This document shows positions 10,470 through 51,332 of a DNA stretch of 64,000 nucleotides, one piece after another (the stretch's first letter is position 1; each line of letters opens with the position of its first letter). Position numbers and translations under genes: made by a program. Source of the DNA: a virus. Lineage: Duplodnaviria > Caudoviricetes. The stretch spans positions 884 to 64,883 of the IMG/VR virus record IMGVR_UViG_3300048123_000029; one strand, given 5' to 3'. The notes under the pieces are model-generated. The model was not told where the DNA came from, ran no database searches, and saw only the letters and a program-made list of their open reading frames with translations.

Positions 10470-10665
10470 TATAGGGAAAGACTATAAAAATGACGCCATG
10501 CACTACTCTGTTGGACAGGAAGTGTATGGTGGTCATACTATAGTTAATATTATAGAAGAAGAAGAAAAGTACTCTATCTATATTCAAAAAGGTAAAGATA
10601 TAATACCCTGGAAAGACTTTAATAAAAATATGGCAATAGCCATTGAATACAATATTGATTACTAA
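10447..10665 (+). CDS. Hypothetical protein
   Basis: Probable GTG start at 10447; RKISIGKDYKNDAMHYSVGQ. Confidence 0.55.
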   Translation: MSLLRKISIGKDYKNDAMHYSVGQEVYGGHTIVNIIEEEEKYSIYIQKGKDIIPWKDFNKNMAIAIEYNIDY

Positions 10666-11264
10666 TGAAAGGTATTTTTGATTTTGTTGTAACTCCTAAA
10701 GACGATAGATACAATAATACTAAAACAATAGGCGACAAAAAATTAATATTAAATACAGAATTACAAAACCATAATTTTGTTTCAAGAGTTGGTGTGGTAA
10801 TGGCTGTACCTAGTCATAATCCAACAGGCGTACAAAAAGGAGACGAAGTAATATTACACCACAATGTTTTTAGAAGGTTCAGAGATATTAAAGGTGAAGA
10901 AAAAAATAGCAGGAGTTATTACAAAAATAATTTGTATTTTGTTTCTCCTGATCAGATATTCGCATATAAGCGTATAATAAAGTGGATTCCACTTGAGGGG
11001 TTTAATTTCGTTAAACCAATAAAAGAAGACAAGATGTTTTCTATAAACTTTGAAAAGCCATTAATTGGTATACTTAAGTATAAAGACCCAAGTCTAAAAG
11101 AAGCTAAAGAAGGTGATTTAGTGGGTTTTAAGCCAGGTGCTGAATATGAGTTTTTAATTAACAAAGAAAAATTATATCGTGTTCCAACAAATCTAATTAC
11201 AATTAAATATGAATATCAAGGAAACGAAAAAGAATATAATCCAAGCTGGGCAGCGAGCAGTTGA
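10665..11264 (+). CDS. Tandem GroES-like protein
   Basis: Two GroES-like repeats: FVVTP...GVVMAVP...VQKGDEVIL and FVKP...GILKY...KEGDLVGF. Confidence 0.55.
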   Translation: MKGIFDFVVTPKDDRYNNTKTIGDKKLILNTELQNHNFVSRVGVVMAVPSHNPTGVQKGDEVILHHNVFRRFRDIKGEEKNSRSYYKNNLYFVSPDQIFAYKRIIKWIPLEGFNFVKPIKEDKMFSINFEKPLIGILKYKDPSLKEAKEGDLVGFKPGAEYEFLINKEKLYRVPTNLITIKYEYQGNEKEYNPSWAASS

Positions 11265-11484
11265 GGAATTAATAAAAGTAGCTAAAGAACCTATAGTTGA
11301 TTCAGATGATGATATATCTGCTGATAGGCTTAAGAATGCGGCTGCCACAAAAAAGTTAGCTATATTTGACGCTTTCGAGATATTGTCTCGTATACAAGAT
11401 GAAGAAGCTATATTAGAAAATAAACCTAAAGAAGAAGAGAAAGCAAAAACTTTTTCAGGGTTTGCAGAAAGAAGATCTAAATAA
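11209..11484 (+). CDS. Putative terminase small subunit
   Basis: 91-aa helical protein directly upstream of and coupled to TerL; assignment is by position. Confidence 0.45.
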   Translation: MNIKETKKNIIQAGQRAVEELIKVAKEPIVDSDDDISADRLKNAAATKKLAIFDAFEILSRIQDEEAILENKPKEEEKAKTFSGFAERRSK

Positions 11485-17392: not shown

Positions 17393-18805
17393 ATGGCTGG
17401 ATCTTTTACTGGGAGCCCAACGGCTCTCGCACATTTAACCCCACGACCTATTAAGGGATTGTTTGGAGACAACTACCTTTCTGTCGCGGACTTAGACTTC
17501 ACGCAACAATTTTTGCCTGAGGTATATGAGAAGGAAGTAGAACGATATGGAAATCGTACTATTGCTGGATTTTTACGTATGGTAGGCGCTGAAATGCCTA
17601 TGGCTTCTGACGTAATTACTTGGTCAGAACAAGGACGTTTACACATTGCTTATGATGACGTTGAAGTAGCTTCTACTACAACTTTAACATTCCCTGCTGG
17701 TCACTTGATTGGAAAAGGAATGACACTTGTTGTATCTAAAGGCTTCATTACTCAAAAAGCATATGTACAAGACGTAGTTGGACAAACTGTAACTGTTGAC
17801 ACTTACGGCGAGGTTGCTGGTCTTACAATGACTGGTGCTGACGTTAAGGTGTTTGTTTATGGTTCTGAGTACGCTAAAGGAACTGAAAATGCTGGTAACT
17901 CAATTGACGCTTCTTTCACAACCTTCAACAACAAACCAATTATTCTTAGAGATAAGTATAATGTAAATGGTTCTGATGTTGCTCAAATTGGTTGGGTAGA
18001 AGTAACTACTGAGGCTGGAACTTCTGGTTACCTTTGGTACTTAAAGTCTGAGCACGAAGCTCGTATCCGTTTCGAAGATCAACTTGAAATGGCTATGGTC
18101 GAAGCTGAAAAATCTTTAAACATCGATGGCACAGTAAGAAACATTACTGCTGCTGCTGGTTTTGGAGGTGGTACTAACGTAACAGGATCTGAAGGTCTAT
18201 TTGCTGCTCTTGAAGATAGAGGATTAGTTTATACTGATGCTGACTTCAACGCTGCTGGTGGCGCAGGTCTTGCGGACTTTGATACTATTTTAGCTGAGCT
18301 AGATAAGCAAGGATCAATCGAAGAAAACATGCTTTTCTTAGATCGTGGTACTTCACTAGCGATTGACAATATGTTGGCTGCTCAAAATTCTTACGGAGCT
18401 GGCGGTACATCTTACGGTGTATTCGACAATTCAGAAGACATGGCGCTAAACCTTGGATTCTCAGGATTCCGAAGAGGTTCTTACGATTTCTACAAAACTG
18501 ACTGGAAATATCTAAACGATTCTACAACTCGTGGATTAGTTGCAGATGTTGAAGGTGTACTAGTTCCTGCTGGAACTTCTACAGTTTACGATCAGCAACT
18601 CGGAAAGAACATCTCTCGACCATTCCTACACATCCGCTACAGAGCTTCTGAAGCTGATGACCGTAGAATGAAGTCTTGGGTGACTGGATCAGTAGGAGGT
18701 AACTATACTTCTGACGCTGACGAAATGAACGTACACTTCTTATCTGAAAGAGCGTTGTGTGTTCAAGCTGCCAACAACTTCGTATTGTTGAAAGCAACAA
18801 GTTAG
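17393..18805 (+). CDS. Major capsid protein
   Basis: 470 aa, strongly biased codons, follows the scaffold and is followed by a strong hairpin. Confidence 0.85.
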   Translation: MAGSFTGSPTALAHLTPRPIKGLFGDNYLSVADLDFTQQFLPEVYEKEVERYGNRTIAGFLRMVGAEMPMASDVITWSEQGRLHIAYDDVEVASTTTLTFPAGHLIGKGMTLVVSKGFITQKAYVQDVVGQTVTVDTYGEVAGLTMTGADVKVFVYGSEYAKGTENAGNSIDASFTTFNNKPIILRDKYNVNGSDVAQIGWVEVTTEAGTSGYLWYLKSEHEARIRFEDQLEMAMVEAEKSLNIDGTVRNITAAAGFGGGTNVTGSEGLFAALEDRGLVYTDADFNAAGGAGLADFDTILAELDKQGSIEENMLFLDRGTSLAIDNMLAAQNSYGAGGTSYGVFDNSEDMALNLGFSGFRRGSYDFYKTDWKYLNDSTTRGLVADVEGVLVPAGTSTVYDQQLGKNISRPFLHIRYRASEADDRRMKSWVTGSVGGNYTSDADEMNVHFLSERALCVQAANNFVLLKATS

Positions 18806-21423: not shown

Positions 21424-24400
21424 ATGCCAGAATTGATTCATACGTTTCTCAAGGGTAAAATGAATAAAGACCTTGATGAGCGTTTAGTTCCAAATGGCGA
21501 GTATAGGGATGCGTTAAACCTAGAGGTAGCTACATCCGAAGGCTCAGACGTCGGTGCATTACAGACATTAGTTGGTAATGTTCAGATGGTCAATCGTACT
21601 TTAAACGATATAACTACGCTGCATACCACATGGGCAGCCTCTGGACTGGCTTATATACCTGCTGACGCTAAATGTATAGGTACCGTAAAAGATGCAACCA
21701 CAGAAAAGATATATTGGTTTATTACATCACAGAGCGTAGATGCTATTGTTGAATATGACCAAATAAGAGATGTTGTATTCCCTATTTTAGTTGATAAAAA
21801 CGGTATACTTGGGTTTAATGAAAACTTTTTAATTACGGGTGTAAACATACTCGAAGGGTTTTTATTTTTTACAGATAACCAAACTGAGCCTAAAAAAATT
21901 GAAATAAAGAAATTTAAAGAGGGTTCATCTGATTTTGCTACACACACACAAATATTCGGCAGAAACTTCATAGAAGCTGATATTACTGTTATAAAAAAAT
22001 CACCTCTTTTACGACCAACTATATATAAAAAGAATACTGTTAGGGATGGTGAGATAGAAACAACTACTACATTTGAGTTTAACACACTGTCTACCGACCC
22101 AGAAGATGATCCTGATGAAACGATCTCTATGGACTTCGGTACTGTTATAACTTTAAACTGGACAAACGCAGTAGACTATATAGCAGGTGACTTTTTATTA
22201 TTAACAATACAAGATCCCGACGATAATTTCTTAAGAGAATTCCAAGCTAGAGTAAAAGTTACACAAGTTGTTTCAGAAGCGCAGGCTATATGTGAATTAC
22301 AAAGCGTAGGTGAGGATCTACCCGCGGGGCCACAAGGGTTTGATGTAGAACTGGAACAAGACGATCCATTATTTGAGTTTAAATTTCCTCGCTTCGCATA
22401 TCGTTATAAGTACGATGATAACCAATTTTCCACATTTTCTCCTTTTACAGAGATAGCATTTATACCAGGTGATGAGTTTGAGTATACAGGTGTTGATGGT
22501 TATAACTTGGCAATGACTAATAACATACGAGTCTTAGAAGTAAGGGATTTTATTACGCCTAACATTCCTGATGATGTAATAGCTATAGATATACTTTACA
22601 AAGAATCAAACAGTACCAATGTGTATCGTGTTGACACTATAGAAAAAACTGCGCCAAATTTACCTGGCCAATCATATAATCAATGGAATGATACAAGCTA
22701 TCAAGAAGGCGGGGCAACAGGTTATAGCGGTAGAATTAAAATAGAGACAGAGCTTATATCTTCTTTATTGCCGTCTAACCAATTACTAAGACCTTATGAT
22801 AACGTTCCTAAAAAAGCGTTGGCTCAAGAAATTACTGGAAATAGAATTATATACGGTAACTACACACAAAACTTTGACATGGTTGACTTCGCTGACAGTG
22901 AGGTTATACCAAACTTTGAGTTTAGTATTGTGCATGATCCTACAAAAAATGAAGATATCATTGAAGACCCGGATAACCCAGGGCAATTTATAAATATATC
23001 ATCAGATCCCGACGGCTCTACGCCGGTGCCATCTTTAAAGTCTATGCGCACATATCAAATGGGTGTGGTATATTTAGACCAATACGGTAGGCAAACGCCG
23101 GTATTTACAAATGATAGCGGTGGTAGATCATTAGCGAAAGAATTTGCAGACCTATACAATACTATAGAGATAGGTATGCTTTCAAACCCGCCAAAGTGGG
23201 CAACACATTACAAGTTTTATGTAAAAGAAACATCTAACGAGTATTATAACTTAGCATTAGATAGATTTTATCTGCCAGAAGATGGTAGTGTATGGTTGTC
23301 TTTTCCGTCTGCCGACAGGAATAAAGTCGACGAAGAAACGTTTTTGGAGCTTAAAAAAGAGCATGACAACAATTCGTTTATTGAAGAAACCGCTAGATAT
23401 AAGATATTAGCTATATCAAACGAAGCGCCAGATGCTGTTAAAATAAGAAGACACCAAGCTGGTAGGCAAACTACAGAGTTTACGGGATCGGGATACCCTC
23501 AAGTTAACAAAGGGTTTTTTGAAATACCCGAAGATGATTTTGACGGTAAAGAAGACGGTACGGGATCCGGTGGTGGATTAGCTGATTTAAACAAAGAGAA
23601 CAATCTTTCTTGTAGAATACTTTCTGGTTCAAATATATCTGATTATTTTGAAATAGAATGGATAAAAAAACAAGGTAATATATATAGAATTCAACTTAGA
23701 TTCCCTACTGATGAAAGCTTAGACTTTATACCAGAAGGACAAACAGGTATACCCTTAGACATAGCAATATATCAATCTAGATCTGAAAATAAACCTGAAT
23801 ATCAAGGTAGATTTTTTGTAAAAATATACAAAGACAACGCTTTAGAACAACGTATAATTAAAAAAGCTGAAGACGCGCAGTTAACTATAGAATACCAAAA
23901 AGAAGTAGCCTATATACAAAAAGGCGGTAAGAGTAGTTTCTGGAGAGATACAGCCCCGGATAATAGTAAAGGATGGTTTTGGGATAAATCATCTCCATTA
24001 GATGTAAGAAGAAGAGCGTCTCCTGATGTTAAATATCAGCGTGGTAATCAAGACGATCGACCATATCAAGGATTAGGTATAGATGTAGGATCTAGAAATT
24101 TAACCATATCATTTCACGGATTTGGTAATCCCTGGAAACAATCTAAAGCTTTCTACAATAGAAAAGGTATTTGGTGGAATTGGCCAACTAATCAACCAAG
24201 CGCTGGCCATCATATAGGTTTTGCTAAAGCGTTAGACACAGCAGGTAGTATATTTAGAATTACAGACGATCCAGATAAAGAGCTTGATTCTCATACTTAC
24301 AATATAACAATGAGCTATCGCTCGGCGTACTGTGTTGCTAGTAGAAGAACTGGTAGACATGGTTCTGGTAAATATGGTAGCCGACGAGTTGTAAGATGGA

Positions 24401-27144
24401 ATATAAAAATAGATAAGCCTATAGCTACGTCTGTAGGTTTACCACCTATTAATACTGGACAGGCAAACCCGACAAGAACAGGTGTAGAATTTTTAAGACT
24501 ATATGCGGTAGATGCGGATACATACACATCTAATAATCCTGCTATATTTGAAACTTACCCAAAGGAAGCTGTTGATTTAGACTTATATTATTCAGCTAGC
24601 GATATATATGAAATACAAAATGCCGGTAGCACTATGGCTGCTCACCAACCATTACAAAAACTAGATTGGTTTAATTGCTATTCTTTTGGGCAAGGCGTAG
24701 AATCTGATCGTATACGTGATGATTTCAATGCAACCCGTATAGACAAGGGTCCTGTTGTTTCAACTGTTTTAGACGAGGCGTATGGCGAAGAAACAAAAGC
24801 CACAGGTTTAATATTCTCACAAATATTTAATTCTACTTCTGGTATTAATAGGTTAAACCAGTTTATAGCTGCAGAACCAATAACTAAAGATTTAAACCCG
24901 TATTATACAAGTGTTCAAAAGCTGCACTCAAGAGATACTGACTTAATTGCTTTCTGTGAAGATAAAGTTCTTAAGGTATTAGCAAATAAAGATGCGCTAT
25001 TTAATGCTGATGGTAACACAAACATTGTAGGTAATACAGCCGTGTTGGGGCAATCAATACCTTTCCTTGGTGAATATGGTATATCTAAAAACCCAGAGAG
25101 CTTTGCTACTTATGGTTTTAGAGCATACTTTACTGATAAAAACAGAGGTGTTATTTTAAGATTATCACGAAATGGGTTAGAAGAAATTTCATCCGCTAAT
25201 ATGCGTGATTTCTTTGCTGATAACTTACACTCATCAAGCGTGTTATTAGGCTCATACGACGACGATAAGGACGTTTATAACCTTACGCTTAATAATCTTA
25301 CAGATGAATGGAAAGATAAGCTTAAACTTAATTATTTTAACCCGTCATTAACTCAAACTGGAACTACTGTTTCCTTTAAAGAAGACGTTAAAGGCTGGAC
25401 TTCTCGTAAAGATTTTATACCTGAAGGTGCTATATCCTTAAATAACAAATATTACAGTATTAAAAATGGTAAGATTTGGGAGCACGGGGCAACAAGCGCT
25501 ACAAGAAATAATTTTTATGGTGTTCAATATGACAGCTCGATTAGATTTCTAATAAATGACCAGCCAAATATTGTTAAAAAATATAAAACATTAAATTATT
25601 CAGGTACAGAATCTAGGGAGTATAGATACCAGGTAGAAGGAAAGCCAGAGGAGCAAACATTTAATTTAGCTGAATTACAAGCTAATCCAAATTATAATCC
25701 AACAAACGAGGTGTTTACGCCTGGTTGGTATACAAGTTTAATACAAACAAATCTTCAAGAAGGTAGCGTTAAAGAGTTTTTGGATAAAGAAGGCAAATAC
25801 TTTAATTACATAAAAGGTATTGGCACGCAATTTAGTACTAATTTAGATAACAATTTAGATGCCGCAGAGTTTTCAATGCAAGGTATTGGACGTGCGGAAA
25901 TATCAGGGGATACTCAAAGTTCATTTGTTTTACATGTGGAAGTTGACCCGTCTTGTTTTGTGGCAAGAGTTGCGCCTTATGTTATGAATGGAAGTTTAAC
26001 CTCTATAGAAGATTGTACTACTTGTCCGACAATTGACCTTGCTAATTTAACTACAGACAATAATATACCAGCAGGGGTTATTACATATGATATTACATCG
26101 GATAACACAAATAATGGGGCATTAACTATAAATGGCAGCATTGTTACTTTTACTCCAAACGCAAACTTTAACGGTGACGCTGGGGCATTTAACTTTACGG
26201 CAACTGATACCTTTAATGGATCACAACTTGTAAGCAATGTTGGTACAGTTACAATTGCGGTTGATCCAGTCGCAGATATTCCTTACTTTACAACAACTCC
26301 ACCAACTACAGCGTATGCTATAGGTGATACGTATATTTATAATGTCGGAGTAGCTGACGCAGATCATACTGGGGCGGAGTTAACTATAACTTCAAGTAAT
26401 ATACCAAGCTGGTTGACACTTACTGATAACGGAGACGGGACCGCCGTTGTAACAGGCACAGTCCCAGATGCCCAACCATACTCTTTTGATTTGGTTGTAA
26501 GCGATCCGGATAATCCGCCTAATACAGCTACACAAAATGTAACCGTAGAAGGTTTAGCTAATTTACTAACTAACTTAGACATAATAGGTAGGTATGTTTC
26601 TACTAACGAACCACAAGGGGTATGGGTTGACCCTAGCACTGGGGTACAAACAACGGTATGCGCATCTCCAGCTTCAGGTGGTCATAGTTGCAGCAGGGGT
26701 ACATTTAATATATTTGCAGCAGCGGATTCTGGTAACGCTGTAGAAATTGGTAGAGTTCATATTTCTAACACAGGCGGCGGTGGCTCAAACTATGTTGATA
26801 GTGATGGCAACCCAACACCCGATTTAGGTGCGCCAAGTGGAAATGAAAAATACTATACGCCACAAGGGCAGGTTAGAAGCACGAGCGATAGATATAGTGC
26901 TTTCAAAATAAGTGAAGCGGATGCCCAGACATTAGCGCAAAACTCAAGCAATGGTCAGATTACGTTTTTTATGGAATGTGGTACATTTAATACTGGTACT
27001 ACAACCGCTAATTGCCACAGCACCGCTCTTTGGTTTAATGTATTTGACGGCAACGCACAACAAATACTTTGTACGGCATTTACAACCGGAACTTTAATAA
27101 CAATTGACATATATACAGGTCAACCCGTAAATCCAATACCATAA
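21424..27144 (+). CDS. Tail stabilisation/nozzle protein with C-terminal Ig/cadherin-like domains
   Basis: GKMNKDLDERL.P.GEYRDALN start; YGISKNPESFA..GFRAYFTD; C-terminal VTFTPNANFNG and PSWLTLTDNGDGTA motifs. Confidence 0.7.
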   Translation: MPELIHTFLKGKMNKDLDERLVPNGEYRDALNLEVATSEGSDVGALQTLVGNVQMVNRTLNDITTLHTTWAASGLAYIPADAKCIGTVKDATTEKIYWFITSQSVDAIVEYDQIRDVVFPILVDKNGILGFNENFLITGVNILEGFLFFTDNQTEPKKIEIKKFKEGSSDFATHTQIFGRNFIEADITVIKKSPLLRPTIYKKNTVRDGEIETTTTFEFNTLSTDPEDDPDETISMDFGTVITLNWTNAVDYIAGDFLLLTIQDPDDNFLREFQARVKVTQVVSEAQAICELQSVGEDLPAGPQGFDVELEQDDPLFEFKFPRFAYRYKYDDNQFSTFSPFTEIAFIPGDEFEYTGVDGYNLAMTNNIRVLEVRDFITPNIPDDVIAIDILYKESNSTNVYRVDTIEKTAPNLPGQSYNQWNDTSYQEGGATGYSGRIKIETELISSLLPSNQLLRPYDNVPKKALAQEITGNRIIYGNYTQNFDMVDFADSEVIPNFEFSIVHDPTKNEDIIEDPDNPGQFINISSDPDGSTPVPSLKSMRTYQMGVVYLDQYGRQTPVFTNDSGGRSLAKEFADLYNTIEIGMLSNPPKWATHYKFYVKETSNEYYNLALDRFYLPEDGSVWLSFPSADRNKVDEETFLELKKEHDNNSFIEETARYKILAISNEAPDAVKIRRHQAGRQTTEFTGSGYPQVNKGFFEIPEDDFDGKEDGTGSGGGLADLNKENNLSCRILSGSNISDYFEIEWIKKQGNIYRIQLRFPTDESLDFIPEGQTGIPLDIAIYQSRSENKPEYQGRFFVKIYKDNALEQRIIKKAEDAQLTIEYQKEVAYIQKGGKSSFWRDTAPDNSKGWFWDKSSPLDVRRRASPDVKYQRGNQDDRPYQGLGIDVGSRNLTISFHGFGNPWKQSKAFYNRKGIWWNWPTNQPSAGHHIGFAKALDTAGSIFRITDDPDKELDSHTYNITMSYRSAYCVASRRTGRHGSGKYGSRRVVRWNIKIDKPIATSVGLPPINTGQANPTRTGVEFLRLYAVDADTYTSNNPAIFETYPKEAVDLDLYYSASDIYEIQNAGSTMAAHQPLQKLDWFNCYSFGQGVESDRIRDDFNATRIDKGPVVSTVLDEAYGEETKATGLIFSQIFNSTSGINRLNQFIAAEPITKDLNPYYTSVQKLHSRDTDLIAFCEDKVLKVLANKDALFNADGNTNIVGNTAVLGQSIPFLGEYGISKNPESFATYGFRAYFTDKNRGVILRLSRNGLEEISSANMRDFFADNLHSSSVLLGSYDDDKDVYNLTLNNLTDEWKDKLKLNYFNPSLTQTGTTVSFKEDVKGWTSRKDFIPEGAISLNNKYYSIKNGKIWEHGATSATRNNFYGVQYDSSIRFLINDQPNIVKKYKTLNYSGTESREYRYQVEGKPEEQTFNLAELQANPNYNPTNEVFTPGWYTSLIQTNLQEGSVKEFLDKEGKYFNYIKGIGTQFSTNLDNNLDAAEFSMQGIGRAEISGDTQSSFVLHVEVDPSCFVARVAPYVMNGSLTSIEDCTTCPTIDLANLTTDNNIPAGVITYDITSDNTNNGALTINGSIVTFTPNANFNGDAGAFNFTATDTFNGSQLVSNVGTVTIAVDPVADIPYFTTTPPTTAYAIGDTYIYNVGVADADHTGAELTITSSNIPSWLTLTDNGDGTAVVTGTVPDAQPYSFDLVVSDPDNPPNTATQNVTVEGLANLLTNLDIIGRYVSTNEPQGVWVDPSTGVQTTVCASPASGGHSCSRGTFNIFAAADSGNAVEIGRVHISNTGGGGSNYVDSDGNPTPDLGAPSGNEKYYTPQGQVRSTSDRYSAFKISEADAQTLAQNSSNGQITFFMECGTFNTGTTTANCHSTALWFNVFDGNAQQILCTAFTTGTLITIDIYTGQPVNPIP

Positions 27145-30912: not shown

Positions 30913-33900
30913 ATGTTCAAAATAAAAATAGACGGCGTTGAGTATGAAATTAATGATTCTAACATCGGTGTTTTTCAAAACGCTTATGGCGATTTAGAAC
31001 AATACAAAATAGAAGAAAATACTTTTCAACAAGACCCTGCAAGTGCGGAGACAAATGTAGGGTCGAAAAACAATACGGTCTCCAATTCGGAAAATGGTTT
31101 ATTGGAATCAAATCAACCACCTGAAAGATATATTAATTATAAACGTAACGGTAAAGACGCTTCAATGTCTGAATCCGAATATAATAATTTCTATGCAGAC
31201 TTAGAGGACAAAGGTAGATACCCTGCGGAATTTGATGTTTATGTTGCAAAAACTTTTCCAAATACTAAAATCCAAACGACAAACTTTGACGAGGGCGCGA
31301 TGCTTGACGAGGTTGTTGTTAAAGCAGAGTTATCAGACGAAGTAAAACAAGCTAAAAAAGACAGCACAGAGCTTACTGCAGTTATTGAAGCTGAAACACC
31401 TGAAGCAAATTATGAAGAGATCGCAGGGGATTATTTTACTGGATTAAACGACGATGGTCAAATAACTGGTATGAATAGACCTCAATTTTTTCCTACATTA
31501 AGAAACTCCGACGGATCGCCCCAAATGTGGCAAGGTAAGGAAAGAAAAAGTGGATTTTCAGAATATAAAAATGATTATGATACTGATTTAAAAAACCATT
31601 TAGGCCCTGTAAAATACAAACAGTATATAACCGCCAAAGAATTAGCTGAAGCAAACGGTGAAAATCTTACAAAAGAAAACGTAAACCAGTATATTAGTTT
31701 AGAATTAATTCAAGATAACAAAAACGACAAGACTATAGACTCTGTTGTAGCTAGTAAAAGAAGTAAGGCTGCTGAAAATTACACAAGAGACATAGGCGGA
31801 TTTTATGTTACTGATGAAGAACAAAAAAGACAGGATTTATTAGAGCAATTTACTGGAACTGATGAAGTTGTTACAAAGAAAAATACTGCTTTATTAAATG
31901 AAAAAGAAAGAGCGCTTAGAGATGCTAGAGATTTTGAAGCTAAATTCGGAAGGCCATTAGTTAGAACTGAAAAACTTCAGGGTAGAACATATACCCCATT
32001 TAACAGAGAGCTTACCCTTAATAAAGTACAAGAGGGAGAAGAAAAAAGAATAGCAAAAGAAGCGGGTGAGATTGAAAGTGCAGTAAAAATATTTGATACT
32101 CAAGCAACAGAGTTAAATAATGTACAGGATGAAATTAGAAACTACAATGTAGAACAAGATAATTTTAACAATCCTGAGGAGGTTGCTTTTAGAGATAGCT
32201 TATTTGATCGCCAAAGGGTATTAATGAACGAATTACAAGCTGATCAATTAATACTTCAAGCCCGAGCTGATAAACTTACCAATGATTTAAATGTGTATAG
32301 CACGACAAATGTGGCTGACGCCGCTTTAGTTAAGTCTTACCAAACATCGGATTTGCTAGCGAACACATGGGAAAGCGCTTTTTTAGGTTCAGCAGCCCAA
32401 TTAGGGGGTGCTATAATTTCTCCTTTTGATGGTGGTATAACTTATGAAGCTGCAACTAATTATAATCAAAGACTGCAAAGTGAGGCTCAAAAATATTTAC
32501 CACAAGCTTTAACAAGCGATGATGACTCAAGTGCAGCGCAGTATTTTGGGGACATGCTCATCAGGAACTCCCCTTCAATAGCTGTGGCTGCTGCAACAAT
32601 GGGTGCAGGTGCGGGGCTAACCGGCGCTGCTAGGCTTGCCGCTATAAGACAAGCATCCAATGCTTCAATGGGTATATTCTTTACTATGGAAGCTGGTGGG
32701 CAGTTATCTAATTTAGAGATTCAGCAAAGAGAAGCGCCAAAAATGATCGCTGCTTTAAATAAACAAATAGAAGAAGCAAAAGCTAACGGTACACCCCTAA
32801 ACGAAATAAATAAATTAGAGGCAGATAAAGAATATCAAGAAAACATATTAAGCTTAAACGCTTTTCAAAAAGGGTTTAACAGTACAATTTATGGTGGAAC
32901 TGCCGCTTTAGCTGAAAGACTAGGATCTTTAGGTTTTGTTAAAAACTTTCAAAAATATTCAAGAGCCATAGGCGGTAACACGTTAAGAAAACAATTCGGT
33001 GAAACCTTAGGCACTAATATAAGTAAAGGCTTAGGTAACGTTACTGCTGTTGGGGCTATAGGCCCAGGTATAGAATTTATTGAAGAAGGTGCGACATTAA
33101 TTGCGCAAAATTTAAGTGATAACTTAATTTTTCAACCGGAAAATCCTAAAAGTTTAATTGATGGTTTAGATGGCGAATTTTTTAGAAATACGTATGTAAC
33201 ATCTTTAGCTATTGGTGGAGCGGGTGCAAGCCAAAACGTTATGACTGCATTAAACAATGAAGTTAAAACTAGAAAGCAAGCTAGACAAGAAAATGAAATA
33301 CGCGATAAATTAATAGATGTATCAAATAAGCTAAACACATTAGACGGCAGAACAAAGGAAGCTAGAAATTTAAAACAAGAAAGAGACAATCTAATAAGTG
33401 ATGCTGCAGATTTAAATACAGCAATACCTTTAAATTTAAAAGGTCTTACTGGCAGTGAAATAAATAGAGTCTTTGAGAATGCTGCAAGCATTAGAAAATT
33501 AAAATACCAAGCTTCCCAATTAGATTTAGCTAGTTTTGATGCAAGAGATCGTAGAGAATTCGAGCGATTAAAAAATGCGTCTCAAGTTTTATATAATGAA
33601 AGCCAATCAATATTAGGTAGATCAGAAGCTGAAATAGAAAAGTTAGCAAAAAACACACCAAACCCACTTGTCACGGAGGTTAACTTTCGCAGGTTTAACA
33701 TGTTTAAAGAAATCGCTAAAGAAACTAAAGGTGTTAATGTCATAGATATAAATAACGAGGAGCAGTTTAACGCTTACTTAAAAGAAAACAAACTTGATGG
33801 CAAAAAATATAGCTATACGGCTATGAACGAAGGTAATAACAGCGCAGCTCAGGTTAACAATGATATATTAATTTTTAATGAAATCGCCGCAAGAAATATG

Positions 33901-36900
33901 CAACAACCGGGTATTGACGGTGAGGTTGCTTCGGCTTCTCCTTTGCATGAGTTGGGCCACTGGCAAGTTAAACAGCAGGGTATAATAAAAGACAACAAAA
34001 TTGTTAGCGCTTCTAACGATATGGTTAGTAGTATTATAAATGATGTTAGGTCTAGGTTTAATAAAGGAAGCATATCTAAAGAAGCTTTTGATAATTTTAA
34101 TGCTAGAATTGCCCTATACAAAGATGTAGATGTTAAAGGAATAGACGCTGACGAGTTATTGCAATTAGTTTCAGACTTTACAGCAATAGGCGTTTTGCCT
34201 AAAAGTAGTTTTGGTAATATATATGGGGCAAAAACATTTGTAAACAGTATACTTAAAAAAGTAAATGGCGACTATTCTCATTTCTTTAAAATTAATTCAC
34301 CGAGCGATGTGTATGCGTTTGTTGCTAACTGGCAAAATAGAGCATTAGTATACCAATTACCTGAAGGGGAAGAAAAAGAGGGTGATAAAATTAAATCATC
34401 AAAGGCTGTAGAGAAGGTAAGACAAAGACTTGAATCAATACCATTAGAACAATTACCCTCACGCGCCAGTCAAAACATTATAGCTAATGAATTATTTGGC
34501 ATGGTAGATGCACAAATACGTAATAGACTTAATTTAGATCCAAACGTAAGAGAAGAGCTACAAGCTGACGTAATTGCAAGAGTATATGAAGCACAAGAAA
34601 ATACTAAATGGGACGGTAGGGGCAGCTTATATGGCTTTATAAACGGCCGTATCGCTAAGCGTATACTAGATGCTTTAAGAGCAAATCCAGATTATCTTGA
34701 TGTTGTAACAAAACAAGAGCTTACTGGTTTAGAAAAAGCTTCTGAAGTTGTAGTCGATGATGTACAAACAGCAAAAAAAGAAAAGCCTAAATTTAGAAAC
34801 TTATTACAAAGCAAAGTATTACCCGCTGACGCTTTAGAATCAGTACAAAAAAAATTGCTTAGTACAATAAGAGTGCTAAAATCAAAACTAGGCGCCGACA
34901 TTTCTATAAACAAAACAGTTACTCCTTTGGTAGCTGAGATTAAAAAAGAAATGGGTAAGCAGGCTGATATTGAATTTAAGAAAAGGTTAGGCTCAAAGAA
35001 AGATGGCATACTAAGAAAAAATTATCTTAGATTTAAAAAACCTATATTAGAAAACATGACAACCACTTGGTTGATGGGCGCTATGCCATTTGCTGTTCAA
35101 AAACAAGTTAATGGTAAGTTTACATCTGACTGGCAGGGCAAAAAGATTGACAGAGAAACGGTTGATACAGATAAAGCGGGTAGAACATCAGGCGCTGATA
35201 TAGTTAGAAGATTACCTAATATTGCAGATAAAGTTACTGACGAGCAATTTTTGTCTTACATGTTTAAAGACGGAGCTGTTATTCGTGGTCGTAAAGAATC
35301 TTTATCGAAGGCATTAGCCGAAGAGCTTGCGTTTGATTTATTTAATAGTGAATTACAAAAGCCAGACAGTGAATTAAGAAAAGCATTTGTAAATAATCAA
35401 GCAGCATTAGGCGCTGAACTTGCAGATAACTTTGTTCAAGAAGTACAAAAAGATACAGAACGAGGTAATATAAAATTTAGTAAAGGATTAGCTACATTAA
35501 CACCTGCAGAAAATGAAACTTTTAGAGATGGATTGCCAAAACTAAAAGAACTTATAGTAGGCATGGACAATGATTTTGGTAAAACGCCAACTGCAATTAA
35601 AAAAGTTCTGCAAAACACATATGGCGATAAATTTACTAAAAAACAATATGACGGTATATCTAAGCAATTTTTTAACTTATTAAAACCGTTAAATAAATCA
35701 TTCCCTAAAAAGTATGTTAATGTAAGTGAACAAGAACTAACAGATTATGTAGAGCAAGTTGCGCAAGATGTAGATGGCAATGCTTCTATACAATTATATA
35801 CAGGTGCTAGCGATTCTATTAAAAATTTATGGAACACAGGCACGAACGTTTATATAGCCCAGGAGGCTATTGAAAATGCGTTAAGCGAGTTACCTATAGA
35901 GACTGTTGTGGCTTTCTTTAGCGGTACTTTTGCTAACTCTGGCAAAGTTGGAATGCGTAACTTTAAAGACGCTAATGAAAGTTTTAGAGCTGATTTTTAC
36001 GGAGGTGAGGCTCAATGGCTTCCGGCTTTAAAAAGGATGTTCCCGCAGCTTGAAAGTATACAGAAAAACGGTGACATTGTTTTAAAAAACGGTAAAGTTA
36101 TAAAGAAAAAGTTTACAGCAACAGGCAGCGTTACTAAAGGCATGCTTGAAGCAAACTTTAATACAGATAAAGATATTAAAAATGCAACAGCTGCTTGGGA
36201 ATTTACTACAGCTGTCGTTAGGGGTATTAAAAATGAAAACCCCGACATACAAGCTATGGTTTTAGCGGCAATGAATAGCGGAACTAATACAGCTTTAAGA
36301 GTAGCTGCTCCTGTATTATATAGAACAGCGGGTTTTAATTCATTAGATAAAGATGATTATAGATACGAGCATGCTTTACCTGCTAGACGGGTTCTTTTTG
36401 ACATGTACAAGTCTATCGTGAAGGATGATAAGTCTATAAGCCTACAAGCGCTTAAAAACGATTATAAGGTCGCACTAATACCTAAGACAATGGATAAGGT
36501 TATTGGTGATCAAGGTTTAGGACCTATAGCAGTTGCAGGTTATGTTGCTGGGCAAACGCCATGGTACAGTCGCTATTATAATATACTAACGAGAGGAAAA
36601 GTACAATATGCTTTGGAATCTTTAGAGAATGGAGAAATTATTGGTCAAAATTATGCAGACTATTTTAATTCCACGTCTGATCCATTAACGGTTAAAACAG
36701 ACGCGCCAGCTGTAGTAGAAGCGAGTATAGCATATGAAAACGCTTTCAAGCTTTCAAAAGGCTTAAACTACGGTATAAATCCTAAAGGTATAACTGTGTT
36801 AGACTTTGACGATACCGTGGCGATATCTAAAAGCATGGTAATAGTTAAAATGCCAGTTCAAGACAAAGAGATATTGGACATAGCTGCTAGAAGAAAATTT

Positions 36901-39669
36901 AATAGCACTGTATTTAAAGACCTTCCTAGCTTTAAAAGATCATTTGATAATCTTTCAGAAGAACAAAAGCAAGAAGTTTTAAAAGAAGTTCCTGGCCCAA
37001 CTAAAAAAATTACACCAGCTGAGTTTGCAGCTGAATCGGTTAACTTAGAAAACCAAGGTGCTACCTTTGACTTTAGCGAGTTTAACAAAGTGGTTAAAGG
37101 CAGAAAAGGTCCATTGTTTGATTTAGCATTAAAAAGACAGGAAAAGTTTGGTAATGACAATATATTTATACTTACCGCAAGGCCGCAGGAATCAGCTTTA
37201 GCGATACAAAAATTTGCTAAAGGTTTAGGTTTAGATTTAAAGCTAGAGAATATAACAGGGCTCGCAGACGGAAGGCCAGAAGCAAAAGCCGAGTGGATGG
37301 TTGGGAAAGTTAACGAAGGATTTAATGATTTTTATTTTGCAGACGATCATTTTAAAAATGTTAAAGCAGTACAAGACACTTTAAGTTTATTTGATGTAAA
37401 ATCTGATGTTCAACAAGCTAAAATTAAATTTAGCAAAGGTCTAAATAAAAGTCTTAATAAAATGATTGAGCGCAACAAAAATGTAAAAGCCGAGGCTAAT
37501 TACTCAAAAGCGGTTGCGCGAAGAAAAGGAGCTAATAAAGGTAGATTTAAATTCTTTTTACCATATGGAGCAGAAGACTTTAGAGGTTTAACATCTTATG
37601 TTTTAGCCGGCAAAGGAAAGCAAGGAGATGCAGATCAAAAGTTTTTTGAAGATAATTTAGTTAATCCTTATGTAACAGGTGTAGCAGCAATGGAAAGAGC
37701 CAAGAGAGCATTAAAAAATGATTACGCGGCACTTAGAAAAATGTTCCCCACAGTTAGAAAAAAATTAGGTAAGAAAGTGCCAGGATTAGAATATACTTAT
37801 GACCAAGCTATAAGAATTTATTTGTATAATAAATCCGGGTTTGAAGTGTCTGGTTTATCTAAGCGTGATTTAAAAGCTATAAACAAATTTGTCGAAGGTG
37901 ATGCTGATGTAAAAGCTTTTGCCGATGGATTACAATTAATAACTAAAAAAGACGAATGGGTTAAGCCTAATGAGTATTGGGATGTGAGTAGCATATTACA
38001 AGATATAAACGAAATATCCGAAAAAGTTAGCAGAAAAGAATATCTTGCTGAGTTTATTGAAAATGTTGACGCTGTATTTGACGAGGCTATGCTAAATAAA
38101 CTTGAAGCGGTATATGGGACTGGTTACGTTGAAGCTTTAAATAATATTATAAGCAGAATGAAGTCTGGTGTAAACCGACCTAGCCAGCCTGGTAAATACG
38201 AAAGACAATGGTTAAACTGGGTTAACAATTCTGTTGGTACTATAATGTTTTTTAACAGAAGATCCGCTGTGTTACAGATGTTATCATTTGCTAACTTTGT
38301 AAACTGGAGCGACAACAATCCGTTAAAAGCGGGCATTGCTTTTGCTAATCAGCCGGCTTATTGGGAGGCATGGTCTAAAATATTCAATTCAGATAAACTA
38401 AAAGAAAGACGTGGAGGTTTAAAGTCCGACGTGCAAGAACAGGAAATTGCGAATCAAGCTAGGAATAGTAAAAACAAAGCAGGTGCTATAGTTTCTTATT
38501 TATTGAAAATAGGTTTTACCCCTACACAAATAGCAGATAGTATGGCTATTGCGACCGGAGGTGCTACGTTTTTAATAAACAGGACTAAAACATATACAAA
38601 ACAAGGCATGTCAAAAGCGGATGCCGAAGCTGCAGCGTTCGAAGATTTTAGTAAAATATCAGATGAGACACAGCAGTCAGGTGACCCTATGTTAATATCC
38701 GCTCAGCAGTCCAGCCATTTAGGGCGCCTTGTATTGGCTTTCCAAAATACGCCGATGCAATACACTAGATTAATGAAAAAAGCCGGCCAGGATCTTATAA
38801 ACGGCCGTGGCGACTTTAAAACTAATGTTAGTAAGATTGCTTATTATGGTTTTATACAAAACTTAATATTTAACTCATTGCAACAAGCTTTATTCGCTAT
38901 GATACCCGGTTTTAGTGATGAAGAAGATGAAGAAGATGTTGATAAAAAGCTAGATAAAAAAGAGTTAAAAATACTGAATGGAATGCTTGATTCTATATTG
39001 CGAGGCTCTGGTTTGTATGGTGCAATAGCATCTACGATTAAAAACGCATACATGCGCTACGAAAAAGAAGAAGAGAGAGGGTTTACCGCTGATCATACTT
39101 ATACATTGTTGGAGCTTGCAAACATATCGCCACCTATAGGTTCTAAGCTTAGAAAAGTGTATGGGGCAATACAAACAAATAAATTTGACAGGGGTATTAT
39201 AGAAAAAAGAGGTTTAGAAGTTTTAGACAAGCAAGGTAACTTAAATTTAAGCCCATCATATCAAATAATAGGCGGTCTATCTTCAGCATTTCTTAACCTA
39301 CCATTAGACAGGGTTGTATCTGAAATTAATGCTTTAGCGGAGGCGGTTGATGATAGAAACACTGCATATCAAAGAATAGCTTTGTCCTTAGGCTGGAGGA
39401 CATGGGATGTTAGCGCTAAGAATGAATATCACGATTTTCTTAAACTAGCTATACAGGAAGAGAAAAAAGATGCTTCAAAGAAAAAAAGAGAATATAATAA
39501 ACTTGTTGCAACGCAAAAGAAGTTTGATAAACTAGCTGCGATGACTCCTGATGAAAAACGAGAGTACTTATTAAAAGAAAAAGCAAAGCGATCTGCTGCA
39601 GCAAAAAAAGCAGCGGCTACAAGAAAGCGAAACAAAAGAGTAAGAGATTCAATACTAAGATCAAATTAA
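30913..39669 (+). CDS. Giant internal virion polyvalent protein (zincin, sigma-region-2-like, HNH-like and HAD modules)
   Basis: 2918 aa. HELGH aa1012-1016; sigma2-like aa~1187-1256; YEHALP aa1818-1823; HAD DFDDT aa1964-1968, LTAR, FADD; four K[FLS]SK linkers. Confidence 0.7.
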   Translation: MFKIKIDGVEYEINDSNIGVFQNAYGDLEQYKIEENTFQQDPASAETNVGSKNNTVSNSENGLLESNQPPERYINYKRNGKDASMSESEYNNFYADLEDKGRYPAEFDVYVAKTFPNTKIQTTNFDEGAMLDEVVVKAELSDEVKQAKKDSTELTAVIEAETPEANYEEIAGDYFTGLNDDGQITGMNRPQFFPTLRNSDGSPQMWQGKERKSGFSEYKNDYDTDLKNHLGPVKYKQYITAKELAEANGENLTKENVNQYISLELIQDNKNDKTIDSVVASKRSKAAENYTRDIGGFYVTDEEQKRQDLLEQFTGTDEVVTKKNTALLNEKERALRDARDFEAKFGRPLVRTEKLQGRTYTPFNRELTLNKVQEGEEKRIAKEAGEIESAVKIFDTQATELNNVQDEIRNYNVEQDNFNNPEEVAFRDSLFDRQRVLMNELQADQLILQARADKLTNDLNVYSTTNVADAALVKSYQTSDLLANTWESAFLGSAAQLGGAIISPFDGGITYEAATNYNQRLQSEAQKYLPQALTSDDDSSAAQYFGDMLIRNSPSIAVAAATMGAGAGLTGAARLAAIRQASNASMGIFFTMEAGGQLSNLEIQQREAPKMIAALNKQIEEAKANGTPLNEINKLEADKEYQENILSLNAFQKGFNSTIYGGTAALAERLGSLGFVKNFQKYSRAIGGNTLRKQFGETLGTNISKGLGNVTAVGAIGPGIEFIEEGATLIAQNLSDNLIFQPENPKSLIDGLDGEFFRNTYVTSLAIGGAGASQNVMTALNNEVKTRKQARQENEIRDKLIDVSNKLNTLDGRTKEARNLKQERDNLISDAADLNTAIPLNLKGLTGSEINRVFENAASIRKLKYQASQLDLASFDARDRREFERLKNASQVLYNESQSILGRSEAEIEKLAKNTPNPLVTEVNFRRFNMFKEIAKETKGVNVIDINNEEQFNAYLKENKLDGKKYSYTAMNEGNNSAAQVNNDILIFNEIAARNMQQPGIDGEVASASPLHELGHWQVKQQGIIKDNKIVSASNDMVSSIINDVRSRFNKGSISKEAFDNFNARIALYKDVDVKGIDADELLQLVSDFTAIGVLPKSSFGNIYGAKTFVNSILKKVNGDYSHFFKINSPSDVYAFVANWQNRALVYQLPEGEEKEGDKIKSSKAVEKVRQRLESIPLEQLPSRASQNIIANELFGMVDAQIRNRLNLDPNVREELQADVIARVYEAQENTKWDGRGSLYGFINGRIAKRILDALRANPDYLDVVTKQELTGLEKASEVVVDDVQTAKKEKPKFRNLLQSKVLPADALESVQKKLLSTIRVLKSKLGADISINKTVTPLVAEIKKEMGKQADIEFKKRLGSKKDGILRKNYLRFKKPILENMTTTWLMGAMPFAVQKQVNGKFTSDWQGKKIDRETVDTDKAGRTSGADIVRRLPNIADKVTDEQFLSYMFKDGAVIRGRKESLSKALAEELAFDLFNSELQKPDSELRKAFVNNQAALGAELADNFVQEVQKDTERGNIKFSKGLATLTPAENETFRDGLPKLKELIVGMDNDFGKTPTAIKKVLQNTYGDKFTKKQYDGISKQFFNLLKPLNKSFPKKYVNVSEQELTDYVEQVAQDVDGNASIQLYTGASDSIKNLWNTGTNVYIAQEAIENALSELPIETVVAFFSGTFANSGKVGMRNFKDANESFRADFYGGEAQWLPALKRMFPQLESIQKNGDIVLKNGKVIKKKFTATGSVTKGMLEANFNTDKDIKNATAAWEFTTAVVRGIKNENPDIQAMVLAAMNSGTNTALRVAAPVLYRTAGFNSLDKDDYRYEHALPARRVLFDMYKSIVKDDKSISLQALKNDYKVALIPKTMDKVIGDQGLGPIAVAGYVAGQTPWYSRYYNILTRGKVQYALESLENGEIIGQNYADYFNSTSDPLTVKTDAPAVVEASIAYENAFKLSKGLNYGINPKGITVLDFDDTVAISKSMVIVKMPVQDKEILDIAARRKFNSTVFKDLPSFKRSFDNLSEEQKQEVLKEVPGPTKKITPAEFAAESVNLENQGATFDFSEFNKVVKGRKGPLFDLALKRQEKFGNDNIFILTARPQESALAIQKFAKGLGLDLKLENITGLADGRPEAKAEWMVGKVNEGFNDFYFADDHFKNVKAVQDTLSLFDVKSDVQQAKIKFSKGLNKSLNKMIERNKNVKAEANYSKAVARRKGANKGRFKFFLPYGAEDFRGLTSYVLAGKGKQGDADQKFFEDNLVNPYVTGVAAMERAKRALKNDYAALRKMFPTVRKKLGKKVPGLEYTYDQAIRIYLYNKSGFEVSGLSKRDLKAINKFVEGDADVKAFADGLQLITKKDEWVKPNEYWDVSSILQDINEISEKVSRKEYLAEFIENVDAVFDEAMLNKLEAVYGTGYVEALNNIISRMKSGVNRPSQPGKYERQWLNWVNNSVGTIMFFNRRSAVLQMLSFANFVNWSDNNPLKAGIAFANQPAYWEAWSKIFNSDKLKERRGGLKSDVQEQEIANQARNSKNKAGAIVSYLLKIGFTPTQIADSMAIATGGATFLINRTKTYTKQGMSKADAEAAAFEDFSKISDETQQSGDPMLISAQQSSHLGRLVLAFQNTPMQYTRLMKKAGQDLINGRGDFKTNVSKIAYYGFIQNLIFNSLQQALFAMIPGFSDEEDEEDVDKKLDKKELKILNGMLDSILRGSGLYGAIASTIKNAYMRYEKEEERGFTADHTYTLLELANISPPIGSKLRKVYGAIQTNKFDRGIIEKRGLEVLDKQGNLNLSPSYQIIGGLSSAFLNLPLDRVVSEINALAEAVDDRNTAYQRIALSLGWRTWDVSAKNEYHDFLKLAIQEEKKDASKKKREYNKLVATQKKFDKLAAMTPDEKREYLLKEKAKRSAAAKKAAATRKRNKRVRDSILRSN

Positions 39670-40560: not shown

Positions 40561-40712
40561 GTTTACAAGAACTAAAATTATACGCTATAAACGGCAGTAC
40601 ACTTGGCCTCACCACTTTTACACAAATAGAAGATGGTTTAAAAATAATGCTGCTCTTAGTGACTATTGGATATACCATAGCGAAATGGAAAGACATTAAA
40701 AAGAAAAAGTAA
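40557..40712 (+). CDS. Putative holin (51 aa, not in ORF track)
   Basis: MSLQELKLYAING...LKIMLLLVTIGYTIAKWKDIKKKK; TM helix plus basic tail; coupled to the endolysin. Confidence 0.6.
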   Translation: MSLQELKLYAINGSTLGLTTFTQIEDGLKIMLLLVTIGYTIAKWKDIKKKK

Positions 40713-41068
40713 TGATGAAGTATTTTAATTATTCAGAATTTGATAGCCCCGATGTGCAGGGCTCTGGGCAGATGATGGATAGGGATTTTTTACAAATACT
40801 AGATCAAGCGAGAGATCGCTTTGATAAACCTATTAATATAAATTCTGGGTATCGTACGCCGCAGCATAATGATTCTGTTGGTGGGACCGAGAAGTCTTCT
40901 CACCTAAAAGGTTTAGCTGCTGATATTGATTGTCGCAAATCAAAAGATAGATTTGAGCTTATTGATATATTCTTAGACTTAGGCATAAACAGGATCGGCA
41001 TTGCAGATACTTTTATCCACATTGATGTCGACCCTGATAAATCACCTAACGTTATTTGGACGTACTAA
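40712..41068 (+). CDS. Endolysin, peptidase M15A-like
   Basis: INSGYR..HN..VGG...SSHLKGLAAD...FIHID. Confidence 0.88.
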   Translation: MMKYFNYSEFDSPDVQGSGQMMDRDFLQILDQARDRFDKPININSGYRTPQHNDSVGGTEKSSHLKGLAADIDCRKSKDRFELIDIFLDLGINRIGIADTFIHIDVDPDKSPNVIWTY

Positions 41069-50579: not shown

Positions 50580-51332
50580 TTACAGATAATCAATCACTTG
50601 GTTTGCGTCAGTGTTAGCGATAAGTTTATTTATAGCTTCTCTTTTTATCTGTGAAACACGTACATTTGCAGTGTTTACATTTATATTTAATTTGCCTGCT
50701 ATATAATTAGCAGAGTGCTTGTCACAATCCAAACCGTATGATAATCTCAATACTTCATATTCAATACCTGTTAAGTGTTGTTTCATTAAACTTAACAAAT
50801 AAGCATTGAGTAAATTTATATTGTATGGTTCAGAATTATCTGGTATTTGAAACAATGGATTTTCCTCTTCTGTATTATAATTTACATCTATACTAGAAAA
50901 TATAGAATTAAAAAACATTGTAACAATTTTTTCATCTTTAGGATTCTTACGTATTTCAGTTAGCTTATGTTCTGGTATGCGTATGTCACCCCGGTTAATA
51001 TCAATCGCACGTCTTATAGCTCCTTTAATTCTTTTACTAAAGAAACTTTTTAAAGTTTTTTCAATATCTTCAGAGTCAATAAGCTTATCCCATTCTAACT
51101 TATCTACCGCAAGAGTTAAACCTTTGCTACCTTCTTGTATTAAATCGTTAATACTTAGTACTCCGGATGCTTGTTCTGATGTAGCGAACTTGCGCGCTAG
51201 ATTCTCAACAAGCGGTAAAAATTTTACAATTAACTCATCTCTTGTGTAGTAATCATAAAACTTATCTTCAGGCATAGACCGTTTAAGATCTTCCTTATAC
51301 CTTATATAGTTTTGTACATTGTACTTTTTCAT
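50580..51332 (-). CDS. Sigma-70-family RNA polymerase sigma factor
   Basis: Region 2 LPLVENLARKF...DLIQEG..GL..AVDK; region 3 IRIPEH; region 4 VLRLSYGL...IA..L...RVSQIKREAINKL. Confidence 0.9.
   Translation of the reverse strand: MKKYNVQNYIRYKEDLKRSMPEDKFYDYYTRDELIVKFLPLVENLARKFATSEQASGVLSINDLIQEGSKGLTLAVDKLEWDKLIDSEDIEKTLKSFFSKRIKGAIRRAIDINRGDIRIPEHKLTEIRKNPKDEKIVTMFFNSIFSSIDVNYNTEEENPLFQIPDNSEPYNINLLNAYLLSLMKQHLTGIEYEVLRLSYGLDCDKHSANYIAGKLNINVNTANVRVSQIKREAINKLIANTDANQVIDYL

Follow-up and report, generated by a model that had tools for sequence, protein, structure and literature searches.

Zincins are the commonest domain in the polyvalent proteins of phages and plasmids, and Iyer, Burroughs, Anand, de Souza and Aravind (2017; PMC5512222) proposed that such domains autoprocess the proteins that carry them, DdrB of phage P1 being one that is processed. 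Self-processing of polyvalent proteins remains a conjecture there, without a defined cleavage site, and a search of a collection of papers for HExxH, virion, phage and autoproteolysis returned this paper as its sole match. Here we analyze P0001, a giant open reading frame (ORF) in a 64,000-nucleotide (nt) window of the IMG/VR virus record IMGVR_UViG_3300048123_000029 (positions 884 to 64,883 of the record). P0001 occupies 30913..39669 on the + strand in a single frame of 2918 amino acids (aa), and is a giant multi-enzyme (“polyvalent”) protein in which a short motif recurs at the joints between modules, downstream of a zincin-like domain. Like the polyvalent proteins of PMC5512222, it joins unrelated enzymatic domains to an HExxH...E metallopeptidase, and its predicted layout of strands, HExxH helix and Glu helix is the pattern described there for their zincin-like metallopeptidases. 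Unlike those of the main text, which describes no linker, polynucleotide kinase, HAD domain or cleavage motif, P0001 has both a junction motif and a slot for a Pnkp-like phosphatase or kinase.

Two giant phage proteins offer further comparison. The virion RNA polymerase (vRNAP) of phage N4, gp50 (3500 aa, with an HExxH in its C1 domain; PMC13434306, PMC5512222), is like P0001 a giant podovirus protein with an internal HExxH; it is needed in the virion and is ejected. The N4 protein is packaged unprocessed (PMC5512222), and no RNA polymerase is recognized in P0001. The second, gp47 of the Shiga toxin (Stx) phage phi24B, has 2811 aa with LPD5, LPD1, LPD38 and MuF-C metallopeptidase domains; it was seen in virions by proteomics, is absent from the cryo-electron microscopy map and is a proposed ejection protein (bioRxiv 10.64898/2026.04.10.717836). 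It resembles P0001 in size and in carrying a metallopeptidase, and no processing of it is reported. In contrast to T4 Pnkp and the bacterial Pnkp1/Rnl/Hen1 RNA repair complex, the HAD module of P0001 is embedded in a 2918-aa protein, in which no ligase is recognized. In MARTX toxins, a cysteine protease domain cuts linkers between swappable effector domains. We draw on them as an analogy only: one chain, an internal protease, linker sites and shuffled effectors are alike, while protease class, organisms and delivery differ.

The junction motif has the consensus hydrophobic-Lys-x-Ser-x-(Gly/Ser)-(Leu), with the core [IV]-K-x-S-x, and stands at four joints of P0001, all on the + strand. Site A (IKSSK, aa 1160-1164, 34390..34404) is a weak copy that ends a disordered linker; site B (IKFSKGL, aa 1520-1526, 35470..35490) is a core copy; site C (FKLSKGL, aa 1945-1951, 36745..36765) directly precedes the HAD core; and site D (IKFSKGL, aa 2171-2177, 37423..37443), again a core copy, lies ahead of the conserved C-terminal module. 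An earlier note on this DNA, which proposed a self-processing polyprotein, had placed HELGH at 33946-33960 and the four motifs at 34390, 35470, 36745 and 37423, and all five strings are indeed there. The pattern K[FLS]SK occurs four times in P0001; 20,000 shuffles that preserve composition average 0.28 occurrences, and 4 of them reach four copies. For K[FL]SKGL, present three times, none of the 20,000 shuffles reaches three and 14 contain even one. An unbiased search of P0001 for 7-mers sharing at least six residues returned the junction motif and one further pair, the hexapeptide ALKNDY, found at aa 1846-1851 (nt 36448-36465, in module 3) and aa 2266-2271 (nt 37708-37725, in the C-terminal module).

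The motif belongs to a large family. More than 1381 relatives of near-equal length were found among 8000 candidates scored, and in an exhaustive search with aa 985-2184 the representatives at 50% identity numbered 1308, with E <=1e-30 for 813. None of the 1308 bears an informative name, and neither Pfam nor PHROG has a name for the family. P0001 itself has no match in Pfam or PHROGs, and tblastn against 50,697 phage records was also empty. A scan of viral contigs confirmed 182 loci, and we retained 80 of these. When 34 non-redundant relatives are aligned with MAFFT, the consensus is ERG-N-[IV]-K-x-S at site B, beyond which the sequences cannot be aligned, and QQA-[KR]-[IV]-K-x-S-x at site D, with a conserved LNxMIER after it; at site B, R1517, G1518, K1521 and S1523 are each kept in at least 90% of 51 sequences.

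A position weight matrix (PWM) was built from 91 distinct B/D pairs, in all of which K-x-S is present at both sites. On this scale, B and D of P0001 score 18.5 each, A 9.5 and C 7.5, and none of the other 38 ORFs of the window reaches 10 (the best score 9.3 and 8.9). Further copies per 1000 aa amount to 0.585 in the B-D cargo region, 0.11 in the N-terminal part, 0.046 in the C-terminal part and about 0.06 in shuffles. They cluster at two fixed spots, 335-425 aa before B, which corresponds to A, and 175-265 aa before D, which corresponds to C. At a PWM score of at least 8, position A is occupied in 15 of 87 homologues (17%) and position C in 26 of the 70 that have the C-D module (37%), compared with 1 of 352 control windows. 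B and D thus emerge as core sites, at which the motif is near-universal, and A and C as facultative ones. One relative with 37-49% identity, P0061, has all four sites, with scores of 16.6-21.5.

Upstream of these joints lies the zincin-like domain (aa ~915-1150, 33655..34362, + strand), with HELGH at aa 1012-1016 (nt 33946-33960) and an invariant Glu1081 (nt 34153-34155) 65 residues past the HExxH. In an alignment of 53 segments around the HExxH (one from the window, plus 52 out of 71 that were extracted from loci), with a mean column identity of 17%, exactly four columns are invariant: H1012, E1013, H1016 and E1081. Because of this conservation pattern, we take the domain as a gluzincin and infer that E1081 is the third metal ligand. 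HExxH is present in 119 of 120 first matches, the remaining one reading HEAGSH (HExxxH), and all 190 judgeable proteins have HExxH or HExxxH 400-780 aa upstream of site B. The AlphaFold2 (AF2) model of aa 900-1530, with a mean predicted local distance difference test score (pLDDT) of 82, places three strands before the HExxH helix, followed by a helix that begins at E1081. As predicted, these strands span aa 942-946, 978-981 and 984-988 (DSSP assignment, pLDDT 82-93), HELGH falls inside a helix at aa 1009-1022, and E1081 starts a helix at aa 1079-1091.

Database comparisons of this domain gave weak signals. The Pfam match of the P0001 zincin region, Tox-MPTase3, is sub-threshold (E 0.094), and the Pfam MPTase-PolyVal and LPD models do not match P0001. 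Likewise below threshold, the 52 related segments matched Peptidase_M78 five times and M90 three times, as well as Zincin_1, DUF3267 and DUF6782, at E 0.009-0.1 and amid unrelated noise. Foldseek comparison of the aa 900-1530 model with the PDB yielded helical-repeat noise, the model being a multi-domain one of 631 residues that barely probes the zincin. Against BFVD, no match of this model reached E 0.001; the best rows, themselves weak, were ART-PolyVal/LPD proteins (E 0.017-0.2). For the zincin region, ESM-Atlas features indicate clusters with LPD23, LPD1 and LPD5 (scores 0.90-0.93), which we treat as a lead only.

The stretches between the joints are distinct modules. The phosphatase between C and D (aa ~1953-2161, 36769..37395, + strand; DFDDT at nt 36802-36816) is the best characterized: its predicted model matches the Rossmann-like HAD fold over aa 1956-2158, and the nearest fold is the 3'-phosphatase of T4 Pnkp. 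HAD motifs I (DxDxT), II (T/S), III (K) and IV (DD) are present, with invariant D1964, F1965, D1966, D1967 and T1968 and likewise T2088, A2089, R2090 and P2091; in motifs III/IV, K2125 and D2144-D2145 are near-invariant. In sequence comparisons, this module has no Pfam HAD match even at E <=10, no PDB match and no Pnkp match. Module 2, between A and B (aa 1162-1519, 34396..35469, + strand), consists of a helical sub-domain and a conserved remainder. The sub-domain (aa 1161-1284) shows a weak fold resemblance to sigma region 2; the remainder (aa ~1300-1516) is among the better conserved stretches, exceeded in near-invariant columns by the C-terminal module. A comparison by hhalign of a 56-sequence module-2 alignment with the phage's own sigma-like ORF gave a probability of 0.2%, sigma factors are absent from the PDB profile matches of module 2, and its Pfam search is empty. 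Module 3, between B and C (aa 1527-1944, 35491..36744, + strand), contains an invariant His1820 within RYEH and has no match in Pfam and no usable one in the ESM Atlas. The C-terminal module (aa 2178-2918 plus the stop codon, 37444..39669, + strand) has the most near-invariant columns of the family, in long runs, and carries hydrophobic segments.

The claim of the earlier note that the motifs mark module borders holds where C and D flank the HAD domain. The label of sigma-like that it gave to module 2 keeps a weak fold similarity and lacks any sequence or profile link to sigma factors, and that of nuclease-like has no support from Pfam or the ESM Atlas.

The check that it suggested, whether homologues gain or lose modules at the motifs, speaks for it. 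In BLAST comparisons of 255 homologues with P0001, homology ends at aa 1520-1529 in 92 of them, starts at aa 1940-1959 in 45 and starts at aa 2160-2179 in 42, such that the breakpoints pile up at sites B, C and D. In five relatives that lack the HAD domain (P0031, P0038, P0040, P0076 and P0084), one motif alone connects the end of module 3 to LNxMIxR. In P0113, the place of the HAD domain is taken by a P-loop kinase between two motifs, and FKLSIG abuts the first kinase strand in parallel to P0001, in which FKLSKGL abuts the first HAD strand. Across the family, the slot between C and D may be empty or may be filled by a T4-Pnkp-like HAD phosphatase, by a P-loop kinase or by the two together. 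An AAA_33/Zeta-type kinase is found in 6 of 25 B-D stretches from IMG/VR, and 8 of 28 distinct B-D stretches are about 410-440 aa long, leaving space for module 3 alone. Where both enzymes are present, as in P0019 (aa 1999/2036), P0061 (aa 2205/2242) and P0024 (aa 2089/2126), the kinase P-loop follows DFDDT by 37 aa; the kinase sits at the HAD cap position, nested in the phosphatase with no motif between the two, which differs from the tandem order of T4 Pnkp. The family thus combines several unrelated domains, as polyvalent proteins do: a zincin and a HAD domain and, in relatives, an AAA_33/Zeta kinase or the type VI secretion system (T6SS) immunity domain Tgi2PP. The latter (PF21576, E 5.5e-6) lies right after site D, at aa 2105-2198 of P0007, with P0022, P0025 and P0032 as relatives, and hints that the C-terminal module begins with another variable slot.

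Within one protein, the copies of the motif resemble each other. VKESKGL occurs three times (P0040, L041), VKSSIAP twice (P0049, L064), KYSLGL is paired with AYSLGL (P0100), and all three copies of P0113 contain SIG. Of the 91 distinct pairs, 68 have one and the same residue x at B and D, where shuffles give 37 +/- 3.6, and at flanking positions -1, +1 and +2 the agreement lies above every shuffle; these shuffles ignore relatedness. Kinship was controlled with a FastTree phylogeny of the C-terminal module (89 rows) and 200 pairings. For the presence of a basic residue after the Ser, 14 pairs then give 6.9 changes in the same way and 0.6 in the opposite one, with a median p of 0.039. The co-variation of the copies is consistent in direction and modest in size, and with phylogeny controlled we regard it as suggestive. 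The three window copies differ in their codons for Ile, Ser, Gly and Leu, and in 28 loci 66 of the 113 residues identical between B and D share a codon, with Ser alternating between AGY and TCN. Since the codons differ among copies, the constraint acts on the protein and not on the DNA.

We read the motif as the self-processing site of P0001's own zincin. This is the best reading, and one that we hold tentatively, at something short of an even chance. Self-cleavage is preferred because (I) the protease signature is under the strictest constraint, (II) the motif stands at every independent border, (III) its copies are linked at the protein level, and (IV) exchange takes place at the motif. The zincin domain would recognize and cut the [IV]-K-x-S joints in the chain in which it is itself encoded, and cutting would free module 2, module 3, the end-healing phosphatase (a kinase in relatives) and the C-terminal module. 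The invariant Lys may occupy position P1' of the scissile bond; some zincins cut before Lys or Arg. We infer that the zincin is active and that the motif is cut in P0001. From gene position and analogy, the protein is most likely carried in the virion and enters the host along with the DNA. The predicted exposure of the sites is in part consistent with this: site A ends a stretch (aa 1151-1161) with pLDDT below 50, and site B is below 50 in both AF2 models.

Several observations weigh against self-processing. The first half of site C overlaps the end of a predicted helix (aa 1931-1948, pLDDT ~71), clear disorder near it being limited to aa 1922-1928, and the first half of site D ends another (aa 2165-2174, pLDDT 59-68). 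No cleavage products have been seen, and nothing in this computational analysis shows cutting. Split genes or stand-alone modules bounded by the motif were sought among the loci and the shorter proteins, and none was found; the search for shorter family proteins returned 84 only, and the ends of the 29 that we examined are spread over P0001 in the manner of fragments. No curated zincin family matches the zincin region above threshold, and a profile comparison with the HExxH domain of N4 vRNAP was non-significant (probability 3.4%, E 0.013), with the HExxH in register. When the zincin columns were compared by mutual information with motif class (x being F, R or E), no clean or charge-complementary column emerged. 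With phylogeny controlled, the class of x changed independently 6-8 times, with D changing the same way in about 3-4 cases and the opposite way in about none (at most one, and that in few of the 200 pairings); this co-variation has a median p of 0.125-0.25. The virion location of P0001 is based on gene position and analogy only, and N4 vRNAP, ArdC and TraC1 carry such domains and are delivered uncut (PMC5512222). Of the earlier proposal of self-processing, what has stood are the breakpoints, the module swap, the invariant HExxH...Glu and the disorder at A and B; the missing split genes, the helix ends at C and D and the uncut N4 protein speak against it.

The strongest competitor, which we consider somewhat unlikely, is that the motif is a conserved joint that is never cut: a hinge, a cap, a docking peptide for the portal/tail channel or a chaperone, or a ligand of a zincin that is a mere binder, in a protein that works as one chain. 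The giant gene is a single ORF of ~2500-3400 aa in all complete IMG/VR loci with the exceptions of L021 and L024, in which it is broken within the HAD domain and not at a motif (in L024, reading resumes in another frame); sequencing errors or decay of the copies probably account for these breaks. Linked copies would follow as readily from a shared binding partner as from a protease, the phage encodes GroEL and a GroES-like protein as chaperone candidates, at C and D the motif runs into the ends of predicted helices, and N4 vRNAP, with its HExxH domain, is a precedent for packaging without processing (PMC5512222). An uncut joint, however, leaves unexplained why a non-catalytic zincin should keep all four catalytic and metal-binding residues, and those exclusively, at 17% identity. 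In addition, A and B are predicted to be disordered and not structural, and the motif marks precisely the borders of the modules that are swapped.

The self-processing reading also has a more far-reaching form. Ejected by the phage, P0001 may be a true polyprotein whose zincin cuts at [IV]-K-x-S after entry and frees an early toolkit: a Pnkp-like RNA-end-healing phosphatase/kinase that would undo host defence of the anticodon-nuclease type before phage gene expression, and a sigma-region-2-like module that would redirect host RNA polymerase, with the joints serving as cargo-exchange seams across more than 1000 related phage lineages. We regard this full scenario as distinctly unlikely.

Improbable in our view is that the motif is cut by an enzyme other than the zincin, either a maturation protease encoded elsewhere in the phage or one of the host, and that the zincin targets the host, for example its cell wall or its proteins. 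Among head-maturation proteases, T4 gp21 cuts at L/I-x-E and phiKZ gp175 at S/A/G-x-E, each using one consensus in many head and internal proteins. The reuse of a short site is alike, but here the motif is confined to 1 of the 39 window ORFs and no such protease is recognized. A head-maturation protease would be expected to act on several head proteins, and the motif is absent from the other ORFs of the window, including the portal, capsid-like and muzzle-like genes; no protease gene is recognized between the portal and capsid genes, and site B and HExxH occur together in 190 of 190 proteins. On the other hand, the zincin columns do not co-vary with motif class, Iyer et al. (PMC5512222) also allow metallopeptidases as effectors on host proteins, and a peptidoglycan role has been proposed for the metallopeptidase of phi24B gp47 (bioRxiv 10.64898/2026.04.10.717836).

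The least probable account, very unlikely to us, is that the repeats share no function and are parts of the adjoining folds, owing their likeness to an old duplication, to scars of recombination or to phylogenetic inertia: few co-variation events are left after phylogenetic control, and A and C are found in only a minority of homologues, but the adjoining folds are unlike (helical module, HAD, kinase) while the motif is constant, the differing synonymous codons exclude a DNA-level scar or recent conversion, and neither the enrichment at the joints over control windows nor the three copies unmatched by any shuffle would be expected. Those codons likewise rule out recombination linkers and DNA-level gene conversion. 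An N-to-O acyl shift at the invariant Ser, with self-cleavage of the Nup98-like kind, was considered as a candidate and set aside: because the folds upstream of the sites differ, no common autoproteolytic fold precedes the motif.

The source record is a 64,883-bp IMG/VR virus rated complete by CheckV, of which the 64-kb window covers nearly all, and the carrier of P0001 is an uncultured marine podophage of ~65 kb. The closest named phages by portal similarity are podophages of Flavobacterium, Maribacter, Cellulophaga and Tenacibaculum. P0001 is part of the structural block, with the muzzle-like gene ahead of it and the endolysin behind; further upstream in this block are the terminase (11484-13694), the portal (13698-16124) and a capsid-like “virion structural protein” (17393-18805). 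Just upstream of P0001, a 1906-aa muzzle-type gene (21424-27144, + strand) matches crAss_MUZ_C (Pfam PF25729, E 6e-8), and this crAss muzzle C-terminal domain links a Flavobacteriia-type podophage to crAss-like tail architecture. The same protein has sub-threshold Pfam matches of Ig/cadherin-like type, Cadherin_5 and Big_9, each at 23.0 bits and below the curated cut-offs. A small endolysin-like gene (40712-41068) lies downstream.

Elsewhere in the window are GroEL (5292-6845, + strand; PHROG 5725, E 6e-139) and a GroES-like co-chaperonin (10665-11264, + strand; PHROG 13932), a pair also encoded by Maribacter phage Panino. The separate sigma-factor-like gene (50580-51332, - strand; PHROG 351, E 3e-19) belongs to the replication/early arm, and a second giant ORF of at least 1170 aa (60490-63999, + strand), open at the window end, has a weak RHS-repeat match (E 0.0017) and otherwise no family match. 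In Panino, the syntenic giant gene, PANI_CDS0069 (L001:35423-40912), encodes 1829 aa annotated as “tRNA methyltransferase”. The Panino protein has zero sequence similarity to P0001 and lacks both HExxH and the junction motif; the equivalent genome position is thus occupied by unrelated giant proteins. The N-terminal region of P0001 (aa 1-~914, 30913..33654, + strand) resembles a coiled coil and has hydrophobic segments rich in Gly and Ala at aa ~480-800. This region differs among homologues, with few homologies starting before aa 1000, and profiles of whole-family alignments against PDB sequences gave matches of coiled-coil type only, which we regard as noise.

In sum, the polyvalent class with its zincins and the idea of self-processing are already published (PMC5512222); what appears new is the definition of a junction motif, the linked variation of its copies and a slot that alternates between Pnkp halves. 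This family supplies a concrete, conserved candidate cut site at four mapped joints beside a minimal invariant catalytic set, which makes the self-processing conjecture testable. The alternation of the slot between the two Pnkp-type halves suggests that RNA/DNA end repair may arrive with the virion. If cleavage is borne out, the motif could allow the mature products of giant proteins of this kind to be predicted from metagenomes.

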